From positions 682,001 to 746,000 of the forward strand of contig OX597815.1 of assembly GCA_951406725.2 (NCBI GenBank): a stretch of 64,000 bases of DNA, given 5' to 3'. Numbering within the stretch: the stretch's first letter is position 1; every line of letters begins with the position of its first letter. Below are positions 5,191-63,110 of this stretch, piece after piece. The position numbers and the translations under genes are program-made. Under the pieces are notes generated by a model. It was not told the DNA's origin, did no database searches, and was given only the letters and a program-made list of their open reading frames with translations. The stretch comes from Octopus vulgaris. Taxonomy: Eukaryota.

Positions 5191-5224
<34 letters not shown>

Positions 5225-5225
<1 letters not shown>

Positions 5226-5445
5226 CGTTTTATGTCTGTGTTTTGTCCTCCACTACCGTTTCACAACCGGTGTTGGTGCGTTTGCGTCCCATAACTTAAT
5301 GATTCGACAAAATAAACCAATAGAATAAATACCAGGTTTTTGAAGAGAAAAGAATAAACATTGGGGTCGATTCATTTGACTGAAATTCTTCAAGGCAATG
5401 CCCCAGTATGGCCGCAGTCAAATGGCTGAAACACGTAAAAGACAA
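5225..5445 (+). mobile_element. SINE family B, diverged 3' half
   Basis: Matches the tail of the complete copy at 52890-53302 (…ATGGCCGCAGTCAAATG.CTGAAAC…). Confidence 0.75.
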
Positions 5446-6057: not shown

Positions 6058-6159
6058 TTAAAAATTGTATAATACAGCAGCAGTTTCGAACTTCATTTTT
6101 TACAAATATATACCTACTCGTATACGAGCTAATCCTATTATAAATATATATATATATAT

Positions 6160-6706
6160 ATAAGAAATATCGAATTTCTAAATCTCTCGTAGAGACATGT
6201 ACGGTGGTGGGGCGATAGAATGGTTGTATACTGTCAATCTAACAAGAACGTGACAGTAGGGGGTACACCACCGCTGTATAGCCCTAGGAAGCATCGAACG
6301 CCTCCTGATAGCTTTGACACATTTTTCCCTGTGTCCTTATATACATATACGAATATGTACATATCTCTACGAGAGATTTAGAAATTCGATATTTCTTATT
6401 TTGATAATCAGTGAATAAACTTCACTGAGTTTACATATATACAATTACGAAGTCGAGGCAAATATCACCAGCCGACCGGTGTCTGCTACTCTAGGCCGAT
6501 GAAGGACAACGATCCTGAAACACGGTGTCCCTAGATGCAGTTCCGGCAGCCGGGGGTGTTTGTCTCCCCTTCGTATATGTATATAAGGACACAGGGAAAA
6601 AATGTGTCAAAGCTATCAGGAGGCGTTCGATGCTTCCTAGGGCTATACAGCGGTGATGTGCCCCCTACTGTCACGTTCTTGTTAGATTGACAGTATACGA
6701 CCATTC

Positions 6707-6709
<3 letters not shown>
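6160..6709. mobile_element. Non-coding Penelope-like/retrozyme-like element with two interleaved inverted repeats
   Basis: 6160-6202 is inverted to 6357-6399; 6215-6353 is inverted to 6570-6709; (TA)n on both sides; contains an HHR; partial second copy at 47351-47540. Confidence 0.8.
6490..6535 (+). ncRNA. Type I hammerhead ribozyme, U4C core variant
   Basis: TCTAGG CCGATGA AGGA caacga TCCT GAAACA cgg TGTC CCTAGA: 6-bp stem I, 4-bp stem II, 3-bp stem III, GUC cleavage triplet. Confidence 0.85.
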
Positions 6710-6759
<50 letters not shown>

Positions 6760-6988
6760 TTTTGTGTCTGTGTTTGTCCCCCCAACATCGCTTGACAACC
6801 GATGCTGGTATGTTTACGTCCCCGTAACTTAGCGATTCGGCAAAACAGACCAATAGAATAAGTACTAGGCTTACAAAGAATAAGTCCTAGGGTCGGTTTG
6901 CTCGACTAAAAGCGGTGCTCCAACATGGCCGCAGTCAAATGACTGAAACAAGTAAAAGAGTAAAAGAGATATATAAACATGCGCTTGA

Positions 6989-9088: not shown

Positions 9089-9153
9089 GTACATAAATAT
9101 ACAAATATATTCATATGTATTTCCATACACTGCACACATACATTATGTATATT

Positions 9154-9184
<31 letters not shown>

Positions 9185-9186
<2 letters not shown>

Positions 9187-9386
9187 TTGTGTGTCTGTGT
9201 TTGTCCCCCCAGAATCGCTTGACAACCGATGCTGGTGTGTTTGCGTCCCCCGTAACTAAGTGGTTCGGCAAAAGAGACCGATAGAATAAGTACTAGGCTT
9301 ACAAAGAACAAGTCCGGGGGTCGAGTTGCTCGACTAAAGGCGGTGCTCCATCATGGCCGCAGTCAAATGACTTGAAACAAGTAAAA

Positions 9387-11917: not shown

Positions 11918-12115
11918 CTTTTACTTGTTTCAGTCATTTGACTGCGGCCATGCTGGAGCACCGCCTTTAGTCGAGCAAATCGACCCCTGGACTTATTCTT
12001 TGTAAGCCTATTACTTATTCTATCGGTCTCTTTTGCCGAACCACTTAGTTACGGGGGACGCAAACACACCAGCATCGGTTGTCAAGCGATTCTGGGGGGG
12101 ACAAACACAGACACA

Positions 12116-12188
<73 letters not shown>

Positions 12189-47350: not shown

Positions 47351-47352
<2 letters not shown>

Positions 47353-47540
47353 AAATATTGAGTTTCTAAATCTCTCGTAGAGAGGTGTACGGTGGTGGAG
47401 CGATATAATGGTTGTATACTGTCAATCTAACAAGAACGTGACAGTAGGGGGTACACCACCGTTATATAGCCCTAGGAGGCATCGAACGCCTCCTGACAGC
47501 TTCGAAACATTTTATCCTGTGTCCTTATATACACATATAT
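47351..47540. mobile_element. Partial second copy of the 6160-6709 element
   Basis: Aligns to 6163-6350 with the same junction to (TA)n. Confidence 0.85.
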
Positions 47541-47765
47541 TATATTAAATTAGAGATAAAACCACTATTAGGCAAATCAAACACTGAAAATCATAAGCCA
47601 ATACATAGAAATAAAATTAATTAAAAAATATAAAAAATATAAAATATAAAATATAAAAATCCAATTAAAATATTTAAATTAAATTAAAAATTTTTAAAAA
47701 TTATTTAAATTAATAAATTAAACTTATAAATTTTAAATATATATATATTTATTTATTATTATTTT

Positions 47766-47796
<31 letters not shown>

Positions 47797-47850
47797 ATTT
47801 TAAACTATCAAAAAATATTAAAAGTTTAATATAAGATAAAGAGTAAAAAC

Positions 47851-47948
47851 ACTACGATCGTTTCATGCCCGTAACCAATTCGAATAACAATAATAATAAT
47901 TTAAATTCAATTAATAATTCGAATTATAGTTACAGTCAATCTTCAGGT
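47851..47948 (-). ncRNA. Hammerhead motif, canonical core, in an extremely AT-rich PLE-like segment (47540-48880)
   Basis: Minus strand: AC CTGAAGA tTGACTGTAAC...GTTACGGGCAt GAA ACGATCGT A GT; palindromic stem III; stem I only 2 bp. Confidence 0.75.
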
Positions 47949-49215
47949 TAATTGTAATATTTTAATAAATAATCAGAAATATTTAAACAATATTTTTAAA
48001 GAAATAAATAATATAATAAATTTTCTTATAAAAAACTCAATTATCAAACTAGAAACTTAACGATTATGATTATGTCAAAACAAGGATTATAATGTTAAAT
48101 ATTAATTTTAATTTTTAAGTATTAATTTTTAAGGTAAGAAACCCACCAATAATCTAATATCAGTAATAGTCAATATCTAATTACATAAATATTTTACAAA
48201 AAAATGACTATTCATATTATTAAAATATAAAATTTAAATAATATATAAATTATCAATGAAAATATATAAATGTATATAAATATTATAATTAATATCTAAA
48301 ATAATCTCTATAAATAAATATATATGCACATATAATAAAGACCTAATAAATTAATCTTTCATATTTAAAGATGAAATAGCTAATTTCAAGAATACAAATA
48401 AACAATCTTAAACGAACGCTATAGCAAATTAACTATCTTTATATCTCGTTGGCTAAATAATAACTTTCAAAAATCTTATATTTAAAATACTTAAAGAAAT
48501 AATCAATTCGTAGTTATATAGTATCAAATAAATACTATAAATATATTTATCAATGGGAATAATATAACTAGCAAATAACAATTTAAAATGACAATATATA
48601 AGTTAAAATAATAATTATAAGAAATTAAAAACTACAATTAATGCTATTAATACATGTATATACATGAATCTAACTTAAAACAACTCGTATACTTGCTATC
48701 AAACAACATATCTATCGCTAAGTAAATTCTTACGAATAAAGTTATTATCTAATAATTATATAGAAAATTACGATAATTAGATAAACAACGATATTTACAT
48801 AAAAAAAACAATAATATTATACCATACGACTTATAAAATATTAAAATTTAAAATTTAAAGATCTTAAATATAAATAAATATATAGATAGATATAGATATA
48901 GATATAGATATAGATATAGATACACACACACACAAAGATAAATTGATAGATACAACTGAGTGGGCAAACAAAAATATGAGACACAGCCTAGATATGAGAC
49001 ACAGCCTAGTGCTTTTTTATGTTGATAAGCCTAGTACTTTTTCTATTAGTTTGTTCTTGTGAAACCAGTAAGTTTTGTGGATGTAAATAAATGAACAGCA
49101 GTTGTGAAGCAGTGATGAGGTAGAAACACAAAGACACACACATAGACTTACATATATACATGCATATATATACGATTGATTTGTTTCAGTTCCTGTCTAC
49201 GAAATCCATATATAT

Positions 49216-51797
49216 TGTTGTTGGCATCCTTTTTGTCTCGGGAGATATTGGAGTTGCGCATAAAATAATCTAGTCCGGCTTTTACATTTCATGTCCTAAT
49301 ACATTTCCTGCTGTGGCTGTGTTGTCCTATCCTGGACAAACACTCCCTCTGGCAGCGAAGATTTTGCCTGGCTGGTTGTAATGTCATACTTTCTTGTTGA
49401 CGTCTTTTCTTGTCTTTCCATTTCTCCTCTCCCTCTACGTCACTCCTTTGTGTTCCCTCTTTTACGGTACGTCGCCAATCTCCACGGTTGCTGGCAACTG
49501 CTTCCCAGTTGGTAATATTGATGTTGCAGGCATTCATGTCCCTTTTGCAAACATCCTTGTATCGTAAGAACGGTCTTCCCACAGACCTAGTGCTCCTAGC
49601 AAGCTCTCCGTTGAGTATGTCCTTGGGGATTCTGCCATCTTCCATACGGCTAACATGTCGAAGCCATCTCATACGTCTTTGTGTGAGGAGTGTAAACATG
49701 CTTGGTATTCCTGCTTGCTTGAGGACATCTTTGTTGGGGACATGATTCTGCCATTTGATACGAAGGATTTTCCGGAGGCAGCGAAGGTGAAAGATATTTA
49801 GGCGACGTATGGCGTGTGTATGGTGTCCAAGTCTCACTTCCATACAGTAGAGTGCTAAGTACACATGCCTGGTAAATCTTCATTTTTGTGGTCTTGGTCA
49901 GCTTATTGTTGTCCTATGCCCGTTTGTAGAGTTGGGCCATCACAGCAGCTGCCTTGCCAATGCGTATATTGAGCTCAGTATCAAGGGATATGTTGTAGGT
50001 GACGGTAGAGCCAAGATAGGTAAACTTCTCCACCTCCTGTAGTCTGTGGTCTCCAGTATGTATGTTTGGGATGGTCGATGTAGCCTGACCCATGATGTTG
50101 GTCTTCTTGAGGGTGATAAATAAGCCAAAGTTGCCACATGCTTGCTCAAAACAGTTGATGAGCCTTTGTAGGGCTTCTTCTGTGTGTGATACCAGAGCGG
50201 CATCATCAGCAAATAGCATCTCCTTGATCAGGACGCTTCTGATTTTGGTCTTGGCACGCAGACGCGAGAGATTGGAGAGATTGAACAGTTTCCCATCACT
50301 TCTACTGTCCAGAAACACTCCATCATCTGATGTCTCAAAGGCATGTGACAGCAGCAGCGAGAAGAAGATGCCAAATAATGTAGGAGCAAGGACACAACCT
50401 TGCTCTACCCCATTTTTTATTTGAAGGCGGCTGATGTTGAACCATTGTGCTGTATGGTGCCTTGCATATCATCATGGAAAGATCTGATGATCCTCAGCAG
50501 CTTTGGTGGACATCCGATTTTTTGGAGCAGGATGAAGAGGCCTTTTCTACTTACCGAGTCAAAGGCCTTTGTCAGATCAATGAAGGTCATATATAATGGC
50601 ATTTTCTGCCTTCTGGACTTCTCCTGAAGTTGGTGTATGGAGAATATCATGTCAATTGTTGATCTGCTTCTTCTAAAGCCACACTGCGATTCTGGATAAA
50701 TTCGAGAAGCAAGCAGTTGCAGCCTGGACAGGATAATGCGAGCAGAGGCCTTTCCAACAGGGCTTAGAAGAGATATTCCACGGTAATTGTTACAATCATC
50801 ACGGTCACCTTTGTTTTTGTAAAGCGTAATGATGTTAGCATCTTTCATATCCTGAGGGACTGTACCCTCTTCCCAGCACTGACACAGAAGCTCATGAATG
50901 TGCAGGATGGTGTTTTTGCCGGTTTTGATGATCTCTAAGGGGAAGCCGTCTTTTCCCGGAGCCTTGTTACTTGCTAGGGAGTCAATAGCCTTGGTGGGCT
51001 CTGCTATAGATGGCAGACTGTCAAGTTCACACATGACTGGCAAGATCTTGACACCCTCGATTGCAGCCTCAGCTACCGTGGTCTCTCGTGAGTAGAGATC
51101 CTAGTAGTACTCCATCCATCTATCCATTTGCTTGCTTTGGTCCTTGATGAGATCCCCAGTAGTTGATTTCAGAGGGGCTGACTTGGTTGCGGATGGACCG
51201 AGGGCCTTCTTCAAACCAGCATACATCCCACGGGTGTCGCCCCTGTCAGCAGCTGACTGGATACTCTGACAGATTTCCTGCCAATACCTATTTACACAGC
51301 GTCTGGCAGTCAGTTGGGCTTTATTTCTTGCCTTTCTGAGTTCTTCGAGTGACTTTATAGAAGAACAAAGCTTCCCTGATATAATTCCACCTACTTTCAG
51401 CAGTGGTGGTTGGGCAGCTACTGAGGGCAACTTTGATAGAAACAGCAAAACATTGTCGCAGTGTAGGGTCGGAGGTTCTGGCAGTGTTAATGCGTGGTCG
51501 GCCCATTTTCTTGGAGTGATGGACTTTTTAGGCAGAATCCTCACCCTGCTTCTTATTAGTGAATGATCTGTGTCACAATCCGCGCTGTGGTAACTACGAG
51601 TCAGTTGAACAGAATTCAGAAAGGGTCTTCGTGTAATGATGAGATTCAGCTGATGCCAATGGTGAGATCTTGGATGTCTCCAAGATGCCTTGTGGGATGT
51701 CTTGCTGCCAAAGAATGTGTTAATGATGCACAGGTTTATGGTATGTGCAAAATTCAAGTAGTCTCTGGACATTGTCATTCATGTTGCCAATACCAAA
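49216..51797 (-). pseudogene. 5'-truncated RTE (BovB-like) LINE
   Basis: APE end (SWRHPRSHHWHQLNLII..SADCDTDHSL), RT (NYRGISLLS, ESQCGFR, FIDLTKAFDSV, LFADDAAL, FTYLGS), C-terminal GRIPKDIL, tail GGATGCCAACAACA; frameshifts. Confidence 0.92.
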
Positions 51798-52889: not shown

Positions 52890-53302
52890 TTTTACTCTCT
52901 CTTTTACTCTTTTACTTGTTTCAGTCTATTGACTGCGGCCATGCTGGAGCACCACCTTTAGTCGAGCAACTCGACCCCGGGACTTATTCTTTGTAAGCCC
53001 AGTACTTATTCTATCGGTCTCTTTTGCCGAACCGCTAAGTGACGGCGACGTAAACACACAAGCATCGGTTGTCAAGCAATGCTGGGGGGACAAACACAGA
53101 CACACAAACATACACACACATATATATATACATATATACGACGGGCTTCTTTCAGTTTCCGTCTACCAAATCCACTCACAAGGCTTTGGTCGGCCCAAGG
53201 CTATAGTAGAAGACACTTGCCCAAGATGCCACGCAGTGGGACTGAACCCGGAACCATGTGGTTGGTAAGCTAGCTACTTACCACACAGCCACTCCTGCGC
53301 CT
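52890..53302 (-). mobile_element. SINE family B, complete compact copy
   Basis: AGGCGCAGGAGTGGCTGTGTGGTAAG head, GGTTCAGTCCC B-box-like motif, short internal TA/TG tract, (GTAAAAGA)n tail. Confidence 0.9.
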
Positions 53303-53421: not shown

Positions 53422-54703
53422 ATGCAAACCCAAACTTACGCGGGAGCGGCAGGCGGGGGCCTGGCTGCGAGGGAGCTGCAGTTGGAGGAAGTGGTTGTCG
53501 AGAGGGAGAGAGTTTGAGGAGGTGCTGCGACGGCTTCGGGAAGGAGGGTGATTGTCTGAGGGTTGCACCACCTGAGGACGAGGTGAGGGAGGCTGAGAGG
53601 AGAGTTATAACATGCAGAGCGTAGAGTGTGGTTTCGAGGAGAGTGGAGGTGGTGGAGGTTGAGAGGTGTCTACGGGAGGTTGAGGGAGGAACTACCTTCT
53701 GCAATGGAGGTAGAAGGTGCGCGACGGTGGACGTTCGTTTTGAGAGCGAGGACGAGGCGGGGAAGAGCGCCACGACGGTGTTGAAGTCCGAAAGGTGGGT
53801 TCTGCTTCCTAGTTATTGTGGAGGGGGAGCAGTGAGAATGCGGATTGGTGGAGTCCCACCTGAACTTGACACGGAAGGAGTGGTTGCGGCGGTGATATAC
53901 AACTGCAAAGAGAGCGTCGACATACTGAAGGTAGAAAAGTCGAAAGAAATAAATTGGTGGGGTTATGCGGTGCAGGCTTTGGTTCACATAATCATGCCAG
54001 ATCTGTATAAAATCCCAGATGAGTTGGTGTTCCCCGACGAGACACGACTGAGAGTCGTGGTGGAGGGGAGACCTCCGGTGTGTTACAAATGTAAGAGTAG
54101 AGGGCACATGAAGGATGTGTGTCCCCTAAGAGAAGTGCAAGAGAAGACGATAACACTGGAGGAAGGAATGGAGGCTTTGACAGAGGAGTTAGAAAAGGAG
54201 AACGTGGAATTGCAAGCGGAAGAGGAAATCGTGACAACAGATAATGTGGAAAGTGGTAACGAGTTGGTGAAGGAGAAAGAAAAGGAAAGAACAGAAGAAA
54301 AAGAGGATAGAAAGCGAACGCGGGTGGAATCACCACCCAAAGACCAAAAAGAGAAAAAAGCTAAAAAGAAGTCTGCCGACGAGATAGAGGATCGAACTGC
54401 CGACGAGATAGAGGATCGATACAGCAACGAAAGTGAGTGAAGATTCAACGTGGGATGAAGAGAAAGAATGGTCAAGAAAAATGGAAGAACGTCTGAAAAG
54501 AAGGACGAAGACCAAAAGGAAAAAATCTCAAAGCTATAATGTTGTACAAAAAGGATAAAGAAATTGAAAAAAAATTAGCGATAATGAAAATTCTAACGAG
54601 AGTAAAACTGAACCCGAAGATATACGATAACCAAATAAAGGCTGCACTTGTAGATAGAGAGACGGTAAAAACATTGCATACATATTACATGGTCTTAAAC
54701 TAA
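53422..54703 (+). pseudogene. LINE ORF1/gag-like gene (L1/Tx1 type), disrupted
   Basis: MQTQTYAGAAG start, RMRIGGVPPEL RRM-like segment, RVVVEGRPPVCYKCKSRGHMKDVCP CCHC knuckle, E/K-rich tail; open frame 53628..54440, lesions upstream. Confidence 0.75.
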
Positions 54704-62349: not shown

Positions 62350-62424
62350 GTGTATACACCTTTTTAAAGGTGTAGCATTTATACTAGTCTGGATAGAATT
62401 GACATATCGGTTCTATTCTAGCAA

Positions 62425-62468
62425 AAACTGTCCGATGAAAGGCAACGTGAAACTCAGAGTAACAGTTT
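62425..62468 (+). ncRNA. Minimal hammerhead ribozyme, U4C core
   Basis: AAACTGT CCGATGA AaG gcaa CGT GAA ACTCaGAGT A ACAGTTT. Confidence 0.8.
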
Positions 62469-62620
62469 GTAGAATTTTCTGCTGCTTTAAATAAAGCATA
62501 CATATACATACATATATATAGTCAATCCAAACATGAACAAGCAAGAAAAAACAACAACAGGAGGACGTGGAATAAGAACTGTGTTATTGGACGCTCAGGA
62601 AAGGAAAGAAAAAAAAGAGG

Positions 62621-62655
62621 ATTTCACGTTTCGAGCGGAGCTCTTCATCAGAGAT
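62621..62655 (-). ncRNA. 35-nt minimal hammerhead motif (GAGC-stem family), N17=G
   Basis: Minus strand: ATCT CTGATGA a GAGC tcc GCTC GAA ACGT G AAAT; host element 62520-62720 is homologous to 36345-36555. Confidence 0.7.
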
Positions 62656-62814: not shown

Positions 62815-63032
62815 CTCTGAGTAAGGACATAAATGCGAAACAAGGTGAGAAAATAGTACTCGAATACCAGAGGTAGAGTAATATGCTTTATTAAAAAGCA
62901 ACAAAAATATCACAAAAACTGTTACTCAGAGTTTCACGTTCCCGTTCGTCGGACAGTTTTGTTTCGACGAACGGAAACATAAAAATCTCTGAGTTAACAG
63001 TTTTTGTGATATTTTTTCTGCTTTTTAATAAA

Positions 63033-63033
<1 letters not shown>
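62815..63033. mobile_element. Fold-back Penelope-like element with tail
   Basis: Imperfect inverted repeat 62886-63033, tail 62815-62885, microsatellite flanks; same family as 62400-62500. Confidence 0.75.
62915..62960 (-). ncRNA. Minimal hammerhead ribozyme, U4C core, all stems intact
   Basis: Minus strand: AAAACTGT CCGACGA ACG ggaa CGT GAA ACTCtGAGT A ACAGTTTT; 8-bp stem I, GNRA loop II. Confidence 0.85.

Positions 63034-63110
<77 letters not shown>

Follow-up and report, generated by a model that had tools for sequence, protein, structure and literature searches.

The non-LTR retrozymes of animals are small repeats that carry a type I hammerhead ribozyme (HHR). The units described from mussels measure 350-390 bp, and circular RNAs of related units are described from coral, mussel and axolotl (Cervera and de la Pena 2020, PMC7229834). 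The same paper puts PLEs forward as candidate movers of retrozymes. For animal type I HHRs, cleavage as a dimer via a palindromic helix III is established behaviour (PMC4209133). In a recent preprint on 31 vertebrates and four invertebrates (insects and a coral), retrozymes are treated as non-autonomous PLE derivatives, an argument built on co-occurrence and pLTR homology (Li, Clavereau, Pollet, bioRxiv 10.64898/2026.07.22.740005). The same preprint also allows local tandem growth without transposition, and it reports that eight of nine Xenopus retrozyme dimers showed no cleavage in vitro.

An ordinary PLE insertion is ordered pLTR-tail-body-pLTR and is accompanied by an inverted 5'-truncated copy, with a short tail at one end that corresponds to whatever comes after the pLTR in the tandem (PMC8557442, PMC3846280). 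Inverted PLE junctions carry palindromes (PMC3846280). In PAc, the only PLE to have been reconstituted, two internal RT start sites delimit the tail, the targets are AT-rich and both strands are nicked (PMC11167929). HHR cleavage is dispensable in PAc, uncut RNA is the main substrate, and the published account gives no RNA-seq ends at the cut site (PMC11167929). Opposite-strand HHR pairs derived from truncated PLEs are also already known.

Here, a 550-nt element of Octopus vulgaris is described and compared with these systems. It lies in a window of 64 kb, which is the whole stretch of DNA that was analysed, and its parts and relatives in the window are as follows.

6144-6162, no strand: (TA)n target, left side; the element end merges with the (TA)n through TAT.
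6160-6353, minus strand: inverted 5'-truncated arm in the order B'-x-A', with a 55-nt tail (x plus A'), from sequence comparison.
6160-6202, minus strand: A', 43 nt, the outer 3' end of the element; 42/43 to 6357-6399, and the same end in the copy at 47351.
6203-6214, minus strand: x, 12 nt, between B' and A', from unit closure; the B' end plus x is found in loose ends before 6357 in public contigs.
6342-6364, no strand: head-to-head junction, with a 7-bp hairpin (6342-6359) and a perfect 12-nt palindrome (6353-6364).
6357-6399, plus strand: A', start of the direct arm (blastn).
6408-6428, plus strand: perfect hairpin of 8 bp, directly 3' to the outer end (fold, pair probability 0.96).
6434-6486, plus strand: spacer, the predicted 5' strand of an extended helix I, pairing with 6537-6587 (fold).
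6490-6535, plus strand: type I hammerhead motif with a U4C core, cut site 6529/6530 and a near-palindromic helix III (descriptor scan).
6536-6569, plus strand: connector, the predicted 3' strand of the extended helix I (fold); joined to B' in public contigs.
6570-6709, plus strand: B', 140 nt, with a TATA-like run at 6574-6586 and the inner 3' end at 6706-6709 (blastn).
6707-6755, no strand: (TA)n(TG)n target, right side, which is the tail of another dispersed repeat.
13969-14785, plus strand: 5'-truncated PLE remnant with a GIY-YIG domain, an upstream CxxC motif and a 350-nt 3' region.
47351-47537, minus strand: second copy, 5'-truncated B'-x-A', with the same terminal base at its (TA)n (blastn).

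The two B' arms are inverted with respect to each other, with 136/140 identical positions (97%) between 6570-6709 and the reverse complement of 6215-6353 (blastn and repeat search). A' is also present twice, and 6357-6399 matches the reverse complement of 6160-6202 at 42/43 positions (98%, blastn). The arm order given in the preliminary description, B'-x-A' on the minus strand and A'-spacer-HHR-B' on the plus strand, agrees with these identities, but the end of x that it placed at the start of the plus-strand arm is not there. No base of x, as defined here, precedes 6357 on the plus strand, and 6354-6356 form a fold-back linker inside the 12-nt palindrome. The repeat unit was computed as 353 nt plus the 12 nt of x, i.e., 365 nt, as had been estimated, and has a GC content of 45%. 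Its order A'-hairpin-spacer-HHR-connector-B'-x closes on itself through links that are common to other copies, and the direct arm stops short of one full turn of the unit. The earlier remark that the unit lacks coding capacity agrees with the longest ATG ORFs of the circularised unit, which are 51 aa (sense) and 57 aa (antisense). An ORF between pLTRs with RT and GIY-YIG, as expected of an autonomous PLE, is absent from the unit. An endless ORF running around the circular unit was also considered and is ruled out by stops in all frames.

The preliminary description took this geometry to imply a tandem or circular RNA unit, which was an overstatement as regards the circle. The ordinary PLE arrangement has the same permutation, so a circle does not follow from the geometry by itself (PMC8557442, PMC3846280). 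The key question is whether the A'-spacer join is native, as in a gene-less unit, or exists only at this locus, since one locus cannot separate a native unit from a pLTR plus tail joined by a template switch.

Both sides of the element are flanked by (TA)n, in which a target-site duplication is unreadable. The sequence at 6707-6800 matches 12077-12171 (93%) and 9141-9227 (blastn within the window). The second copy, 47351-47537, is 92% identical (195/211 including the microsatellite) and stands in the same (TA)n register, with 47351 corresponding to 6163, as had been pointed out before. The inner and outer 3' ends lie 55 nt apart; the outer end is seen in two copies of the window, and the inner end recurs in eight public contigs of run X1 that end on a TA run (loose end at 6215). 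Copies thus terminate on TA runs at either of two sites and carry head-to-head inversions at variable breakpoints.

The host sequence of the insertion is a dispersed repeat at 6707-6960, presumably SINE-like, with copies at 5191-5442, 9141-9227, 12077-12171 and 53067-53120, and the element sits in its (TA)n(TG)n tail. A very AT-rich stretch of about 1.3 kb (47538-48880) adjoins the 5' end of the second copy without a gap; it is bounded by a microsatellite and has an organelle-like look. When it was checked for mitochondrial origin, no tRNA, no Rfam hit and no long table-5 ORF were found in it, and it could be captured DNA or plain flank.

The hammerhead at 6490-6535 (+) is of type I, with a helix I of 6 bp, a helix II of 4 bp, a short helix III and a GUC cut site at 6529/6530. 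The strict descriptor was matched in none of 5000 shuffles of the 550-nt element and in none of 100 shuffles of the window, compared with two places in the real window. In Rfam searches, the window had no match at gathering scores and the segment 6100-6800 no hammerhead at E up to 10, and the identification is that of a custom descriptor, not of Rfam. The single HHR with its cut site had been recognised correctly, but it had been overlooked that core position 4 is C where the canonical base is U (U4C). C4 is the state of the family, because no substitution is listed at 6497 in any of the four runs of public contigs analysed (X1, X5, X9 and X12). Such a change in the core could weaken cleavage; in vitro, U4C considerably lowered activity, yet it allowed viroid infectivity (PMC3088659). 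In the public contigs, no substitution of at least 5% is listed at the core positions 6496, 6497, 6499, 6501, 6502 and 6517-6520, and depth is highest at the ribozyme core, with a flank of low depth on either side. Where one G at 6524 is naturally missing, in 13% of the depth of X5, helix III becomes a perfect palindrome.

Other hammerheads were observed in the window. A second HHR repeat family, at 62424-62496 and 62881-63038, also has C at core position 4 (62432 on the plus strand and 62952 on the minus strand), and its copy at 62881-63038 is a head-to-head inversion ending on TA runs, i.e., the same PLE-type geometry. Further matches to the hammerhead core belong to other repeat families and lie at 62651 (-), 15579 (-), 10308-10240 (-), 9528 (-) and 882 (+); the one at 62651 (-) resembles a minimal PLE-type HHR. 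No significant match was found between the 365-nt unit and the other HHR repeats of the window, including 62424-62496 and 62881-63038.

The unit is predicted to be strongly folded. As a circle it reaches -120.4 kcal/mol against -86.5 +/- 5.4 for shuffled sequences (0/150 as low; z -6.2). The folding signal is independent of circle closure, as z is -6.0 for the linear plus strand; for 16 control folds taken from the window, z values lie in the range -2.45 to +0.94. The region 6430-6580 has z -5.2 and contains the predicted extended helix I, in which 6434-6486 pairs with 6537-6587 in helices of 8, 7, 12, 4 and 4 bp (p 0.98-1.0), the spacer lengthening helix I by about 40 bp. The common variants (about 5% and above in X1 or X5) are unphased and were set against the predicted fold with no null: of 23, 11 are unpaired, seven keep the pair and five break it, two of the latter falling in the extended helix at p 1.0. 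Both sides of the predicted pair 6622-6634 vary with pairing kept, again unphased and with no null. For the monomer, the prediction pairs core positions 6496-6498 with loop III (p 0.99). The blocked monomer has an energy of -24.0 kcal/mol versus -18.6 for the active fold, and an intermolecular helix III contributes -9.3, all energies that ignore tertiary contacts. By this model, two copies can form helix III between them.

In size (150-450 bp), GC content (below 50%), lack of protein, type I HHR and self-paired predicted circle, the unit has the properties of retrozymes. It resembles the non-LTR retrozymes of animals in its HHR, with the same helix I of 6 bp, helix II of 4 bp and short helix III, and in its size, GC content of 45%, lack of an ORF, strongly self-paired predicted circle and high copy number (PMC7229834). 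Unlike those retrozymes, it forms no tandem array in the window, is dispersed as head-to-head PLE-type insertions in (TA)n and has a U4C core. The prediction for its monomer HHR is a blocked one, unlike that for most metazoan retrozyme circles, which come out as open, with some mussel circles as exceptions (PMC7229834). With the units of Li et al. it shares the proposed pLTR origin, the dispersed monomers and overlapping unit sizes; the argument presented in that preprint is made without insertion footprints, whereas the footprints here are PLE-type (bioRxiv 10.64898/2026.07.22.740005).

The locus also compares with EN+ PLEs (Penelope/Poseidon, Neptune), with which it has in common an HHR in a terminal repeat, a tail at one end only, an inverted 5'-truncated copy, a palindrome at the inverted junction, microsatellite targets and a stem-loop near the RT start (PMC8557442, PMC3846280, PMC11167929). 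It differs from them in having no RT/GIY-YIG ORF, a tail of 55 nt instead of 30-40 and a canonical instead of a minimal HHR. In being gene-less, pLTR-forming and, as proposed here, mobilised in trans, it is like Chlamys PLEs such as MRC1; unlike here, the Chlamys host is a green alga, and the N-terminal EN+ clades are reported as lacking canonical HHRs (PMC8557442). A literature search found no description of this family, of octopus hammerheads or of head-to-head retrozyme insertions; repeat libraries and supplements were outside that search, so the family may already carry a name.

Parts of the element are present in 20/24 listed runs from 10 studies and four organisms. Four runs from two organisms (A and B) were aligned to 6203-6569, in which each unit base is present once, at an identity cut-off of 85%; X1 and X5 are DNA runs, and X9 and X12 were used as sequence sources only. 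The numbers of aligned contigs were 2394 (X1), 1866 (X5), 33 (X9) and 54 (X12). Divergent copies in all four runs, and thus in both organisms, have the order hairpin-spacer-ribozyme-B' without an ORF. The HHR side is joined to B' in 12, 8, 1 and 1 contigs (X1, X5, X9 and X12, respectively), with a summed depth at this joint of 211x (X1) and 102x (X5) the median of single-contig joints. Among the listed loose ends, the B' end plus x precedes 6357 in five contigs of X1, two of X9 and three of X12. A link was counted as bridged when at least 31 letters lay on both sides, and 32 of the 4466 pieces are listed. By this rule, 6428/6429, where an ORF would be situated, is bridged by three of the 32 listed pieces (records 8, 14 and 29), and the spacer-ribozyme link 6462/6463 by five of the 32. 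The three records are other copies or alleles, because they differ by 8, 14 and 5 letters, respectively. They also cross the A'-spacer junction 6399/6400, which nevertheless fails the 31-letter rule because at most 11 letters lie on the A' side. None of the 32 listed pieces of 4466 covers the whole stretch 6203-6569 as a single contig.

The preliminary description had held that its reading would be undermined if the A'-spacer junction were unique to this locus or if other copies continued from A' into an RT/GIY-YIG ORF. The junction is crossed by contigs of two organisms, and no continuation of A' into such an ORF, or into anything ORF-like, is present among the listed loose ends, nor is there an alternative upstream neighbour at 6400. 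Both DNA runs reach a depth of about 1e5 at 6398-6423, compared with 11-182 for single-contig joints. Depth drops about tenfold from 6409 to 6429 (0.91 and 0.87 lost) and recovers at the ribozyme; the lowest listed spacer depth is about 300x that of a single joint, where summed depth does not stand for copy number. Depth is lowest at 6424-6462 and 6541-6569, the two predicted strands of the extended helix, and since these are helix partners, concerted divergence past the 85% cut-off is a simple reading of the loss. The loss at 6409-6429 could reflect divergence or copies that end there, and an unseen continuation could likewise account for it. In X5, the loose end listed at 6428 is TA-rich, which hints at a third 3' end. 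The share of contigs that run on into unlike sequence is 0 in X1 and X5, and in X9 two contigs run on unlike upstream of 6474 (median 156 nt).

Among the 15 listed joints, nine are head-to-head inversions, two are deletions in B', one is an inversion in B', and three are the HHR-B' link or variants of it. The nine inversions enter the plus strand at 6360, 6364, 6403, 6467, 6482, 6492, 6495, 6497 and 6513, each in one contig per run, and are independent PLE-type events with their own breakpoints. Further direct-arm starts are listed at 6450 and, ambiguously, at 6552. With these inversions and the ORF-less divergent copies, the non-autonomous unit of about 365 nt with PLE-style inversion that was first proposed is supported. 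The cut site is spanned by 9/9 listed inversions, and none of the nine starts at 6530. Breakpoints all lying upstream of the cut site do not amount to a deficit, because 81% of the plus-strand reference lies upstream; their positions show only that copying through the cut site is common. No accumulation of contig ends at the cut site is listed, although ends are not something that contigs can reveal.

The inversion joint 6300 to 6497 is common to runs of organisms A and B, which suggests either an insertion that predates the split between A and B or a propagating inverted subfamily. In a pattern scan of metagenomes (26 loci) and viral contigs (3 loci), all 29 loci were short matches of 17-38 nt around the pattern and are attributed to chance; a second pattern scan gave no viral loci and five prokaryote loci.

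The element is thus very probably a non-autonomous unit mobilised by PLEs. It works like a non-LTR retrozyme, as a high-copy non-autonomous PLE derivative. A non-LTR retrozyme would have at least two head-to-tail units, each with an HHR; no such array was found at the locus, which has a single HHR, or elsewhere in the 64-kb window, and the locus is therefore classed as a non-autonomous PLE derivative of the retrozyme type and not as an active retrozyme. One alternative is that the A'-spacer junction arose once, by a template switch that joined a truncated pLTR to a tail fragment, and that there is no 365-nt unit. The plus-strand A' does stop at the outer 3' terminus, the position expected after a jump to the start site, and none of the 32 listed pieces of 4466 bridges 6399/6400 by the 31-letter rule. 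Against this stand the divergent contigs of two organisms (records 8, 14 and 29) that cross the junction, the depth around it compared with single joints, the lack, in the loose ends listed, of a different sequence upstream of 6400, and direct arms of other inversions that start at 6360 and 6364; a one-off switch is therefore highly improbable. It is also improbable, though not to the same degree, that most of the family DNA belongs to an autonomous PLE with an ORF that follows the hairpin (6428) and precedes the extended helix (6434). The ORF-less form would then be a minor deletion subfamily, and most matches would be 5'-truncated pLTRs. This reading would fit the tenfold fall in depth at 6424-6462 and the two X9 contigs that run on unlike upstream of 6474, and the loose ends listed, with 224 more outside the list, leave room for a low-copy autonomous partner. 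However, the connector 6541-6569, the pairing partner of that stretch, drops likewise, neither X1 nor X5 shows an unlike run-on, the listed loose end at 6428 is rich in TA, and the spacer depth still exceeds a single joint about 300-fold.

A stronger competitor, which we consider possible but clearly less likely than a circular template, accepts the same ORF-less PLE derivative and takes as its template an uncut linear transcript of partial-tandem copies, with a promoter in the upstream B', a weak or vestigial ribozyme and no need for a circle. The U4C core, the predicted blocked fold, a direct arm shorter than one turn and the lack of an array in the window are consistent with it. So are non-autonomous PLEs with pLTRs such as MRC1 (PMC8557442), the insertion of PAc without need for its HHR, the lack of RNA-seq ends at the PAc cut site (PMC11167929) and the eight of nine Xenopus dimers without cleavage (bioRxiv 10.64898/2026.07.22.740005). 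On the other side, the high depth of the core between low flanks, with no listed core substitution of at least 5%, fits selection in gene-less copies, and the palindromic helix III variants fit cleavage by a double ribozyme. A cut linear monomer cannot give the direct arm without an end-to-end jump, because the arm crosses the cut site and continues in A'; with a circle or an uncut multimer no such jump is needed. The circle is favoured on two grounds, the conservation of the core between flanks that diverge and the circular RNAs of related units in coral, mussel and axolotl (PMC7229834).

The whole chain, in which an ORF-less 365-nt PLE derivative is copied into (TA)n by a PLE RT from a circular RNA, is on balance probable. 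Tandem or terminally redundant source copies would be transcribed, two ribozymes would pair via the near-palindromic helix III and excise monomers, and a host ligase would circularise these; the predicted block of the monomer core would then keep the circle closed. A helper GIY-YIG/RT protein would, by analogy with PLE biochemistry, bind near the 6408-6428 hairpin, a candidate binding signal for the PLE protein, and nick both (TA)n strands, with cDNA starting internally at two sites. The first cDNA would start at the inner site and extend for 353 nt, across the cut site and into A', the second would extend for 194 nt from the outer site, and both would be joined at a fold-back palindrome. More tentatively, and with rather more doubt than confidence, the unit may have a built-in switch, in which the fixed U4C core blocks the monomer so that cleavage occurs only as a dimer, yielding a 365-nt circle on which the PLE RT starts at two internal sites, with hundreds or more insertions as the outcome.

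The helper class is present in the window in the form of the PLE GIY-YIG remnant at 13969-14785, which is a candidate partner only. Its part 13969-14433 codes for the GIY-YIG domain, relatives of about 740 aa carry RT plus GIY-YIG, and the CxxC motif upstream of the domain is one that we take to be Neptune-like. The remnant ends on (TA)n at 14785, after a motif resembling the end of A'. Compared with the 365-nt unit, this remnant, the only one compared, gave a borderline match, with one of 24 comparisons beating all 100 shuffles.

The window contains several other features. A 2.4-kb (CTT)n array of about 800 copies lies at 22928-25336, and an inverted repeat pair of 228 nt (31383-31610 and 32327-32554; 90% identical and about 720 nt apart) is MITE-like or another inverted insertion. 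The ORF of 271 aa at 53625-54440 (+) has a CCHC zinc knuckle and resembles a LINE ORF1. By eye, 35662-36537 and 49289-51778 are presumably LINE RT fragments, and fragments at 19788, 55317, 56751 and 60290 were likewise taken to be Tc1/mariner.

These results touch on two questions about animal retrozymes, namely the enzyme that moves them and the possible role of the circle as template. The origin of retrozymes from PLEs has already been proposed in print, and the class itself has been described, so the gain is incremental; what is new is the presence of PLE-type insertion footprints on a retrozyme-sized unit. An ORF-less unit of this size with a PLE tail, inversion and a preference for (TA)n in many independent copies makes the question of the mover testable. 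In addition, a U4C core that is fixed in a high-copy family and shared by an unrelated HHR family of the same window would be missed by canonical descriptors and by Rfam. If the reading with a circle and a switch is true, the family would provide footprint evidence for the mobilisation of retrozymes by PLEs, as well as a minimal map of the cis-elements (start sites, hairpin and extended helix I) for PLE transposition.
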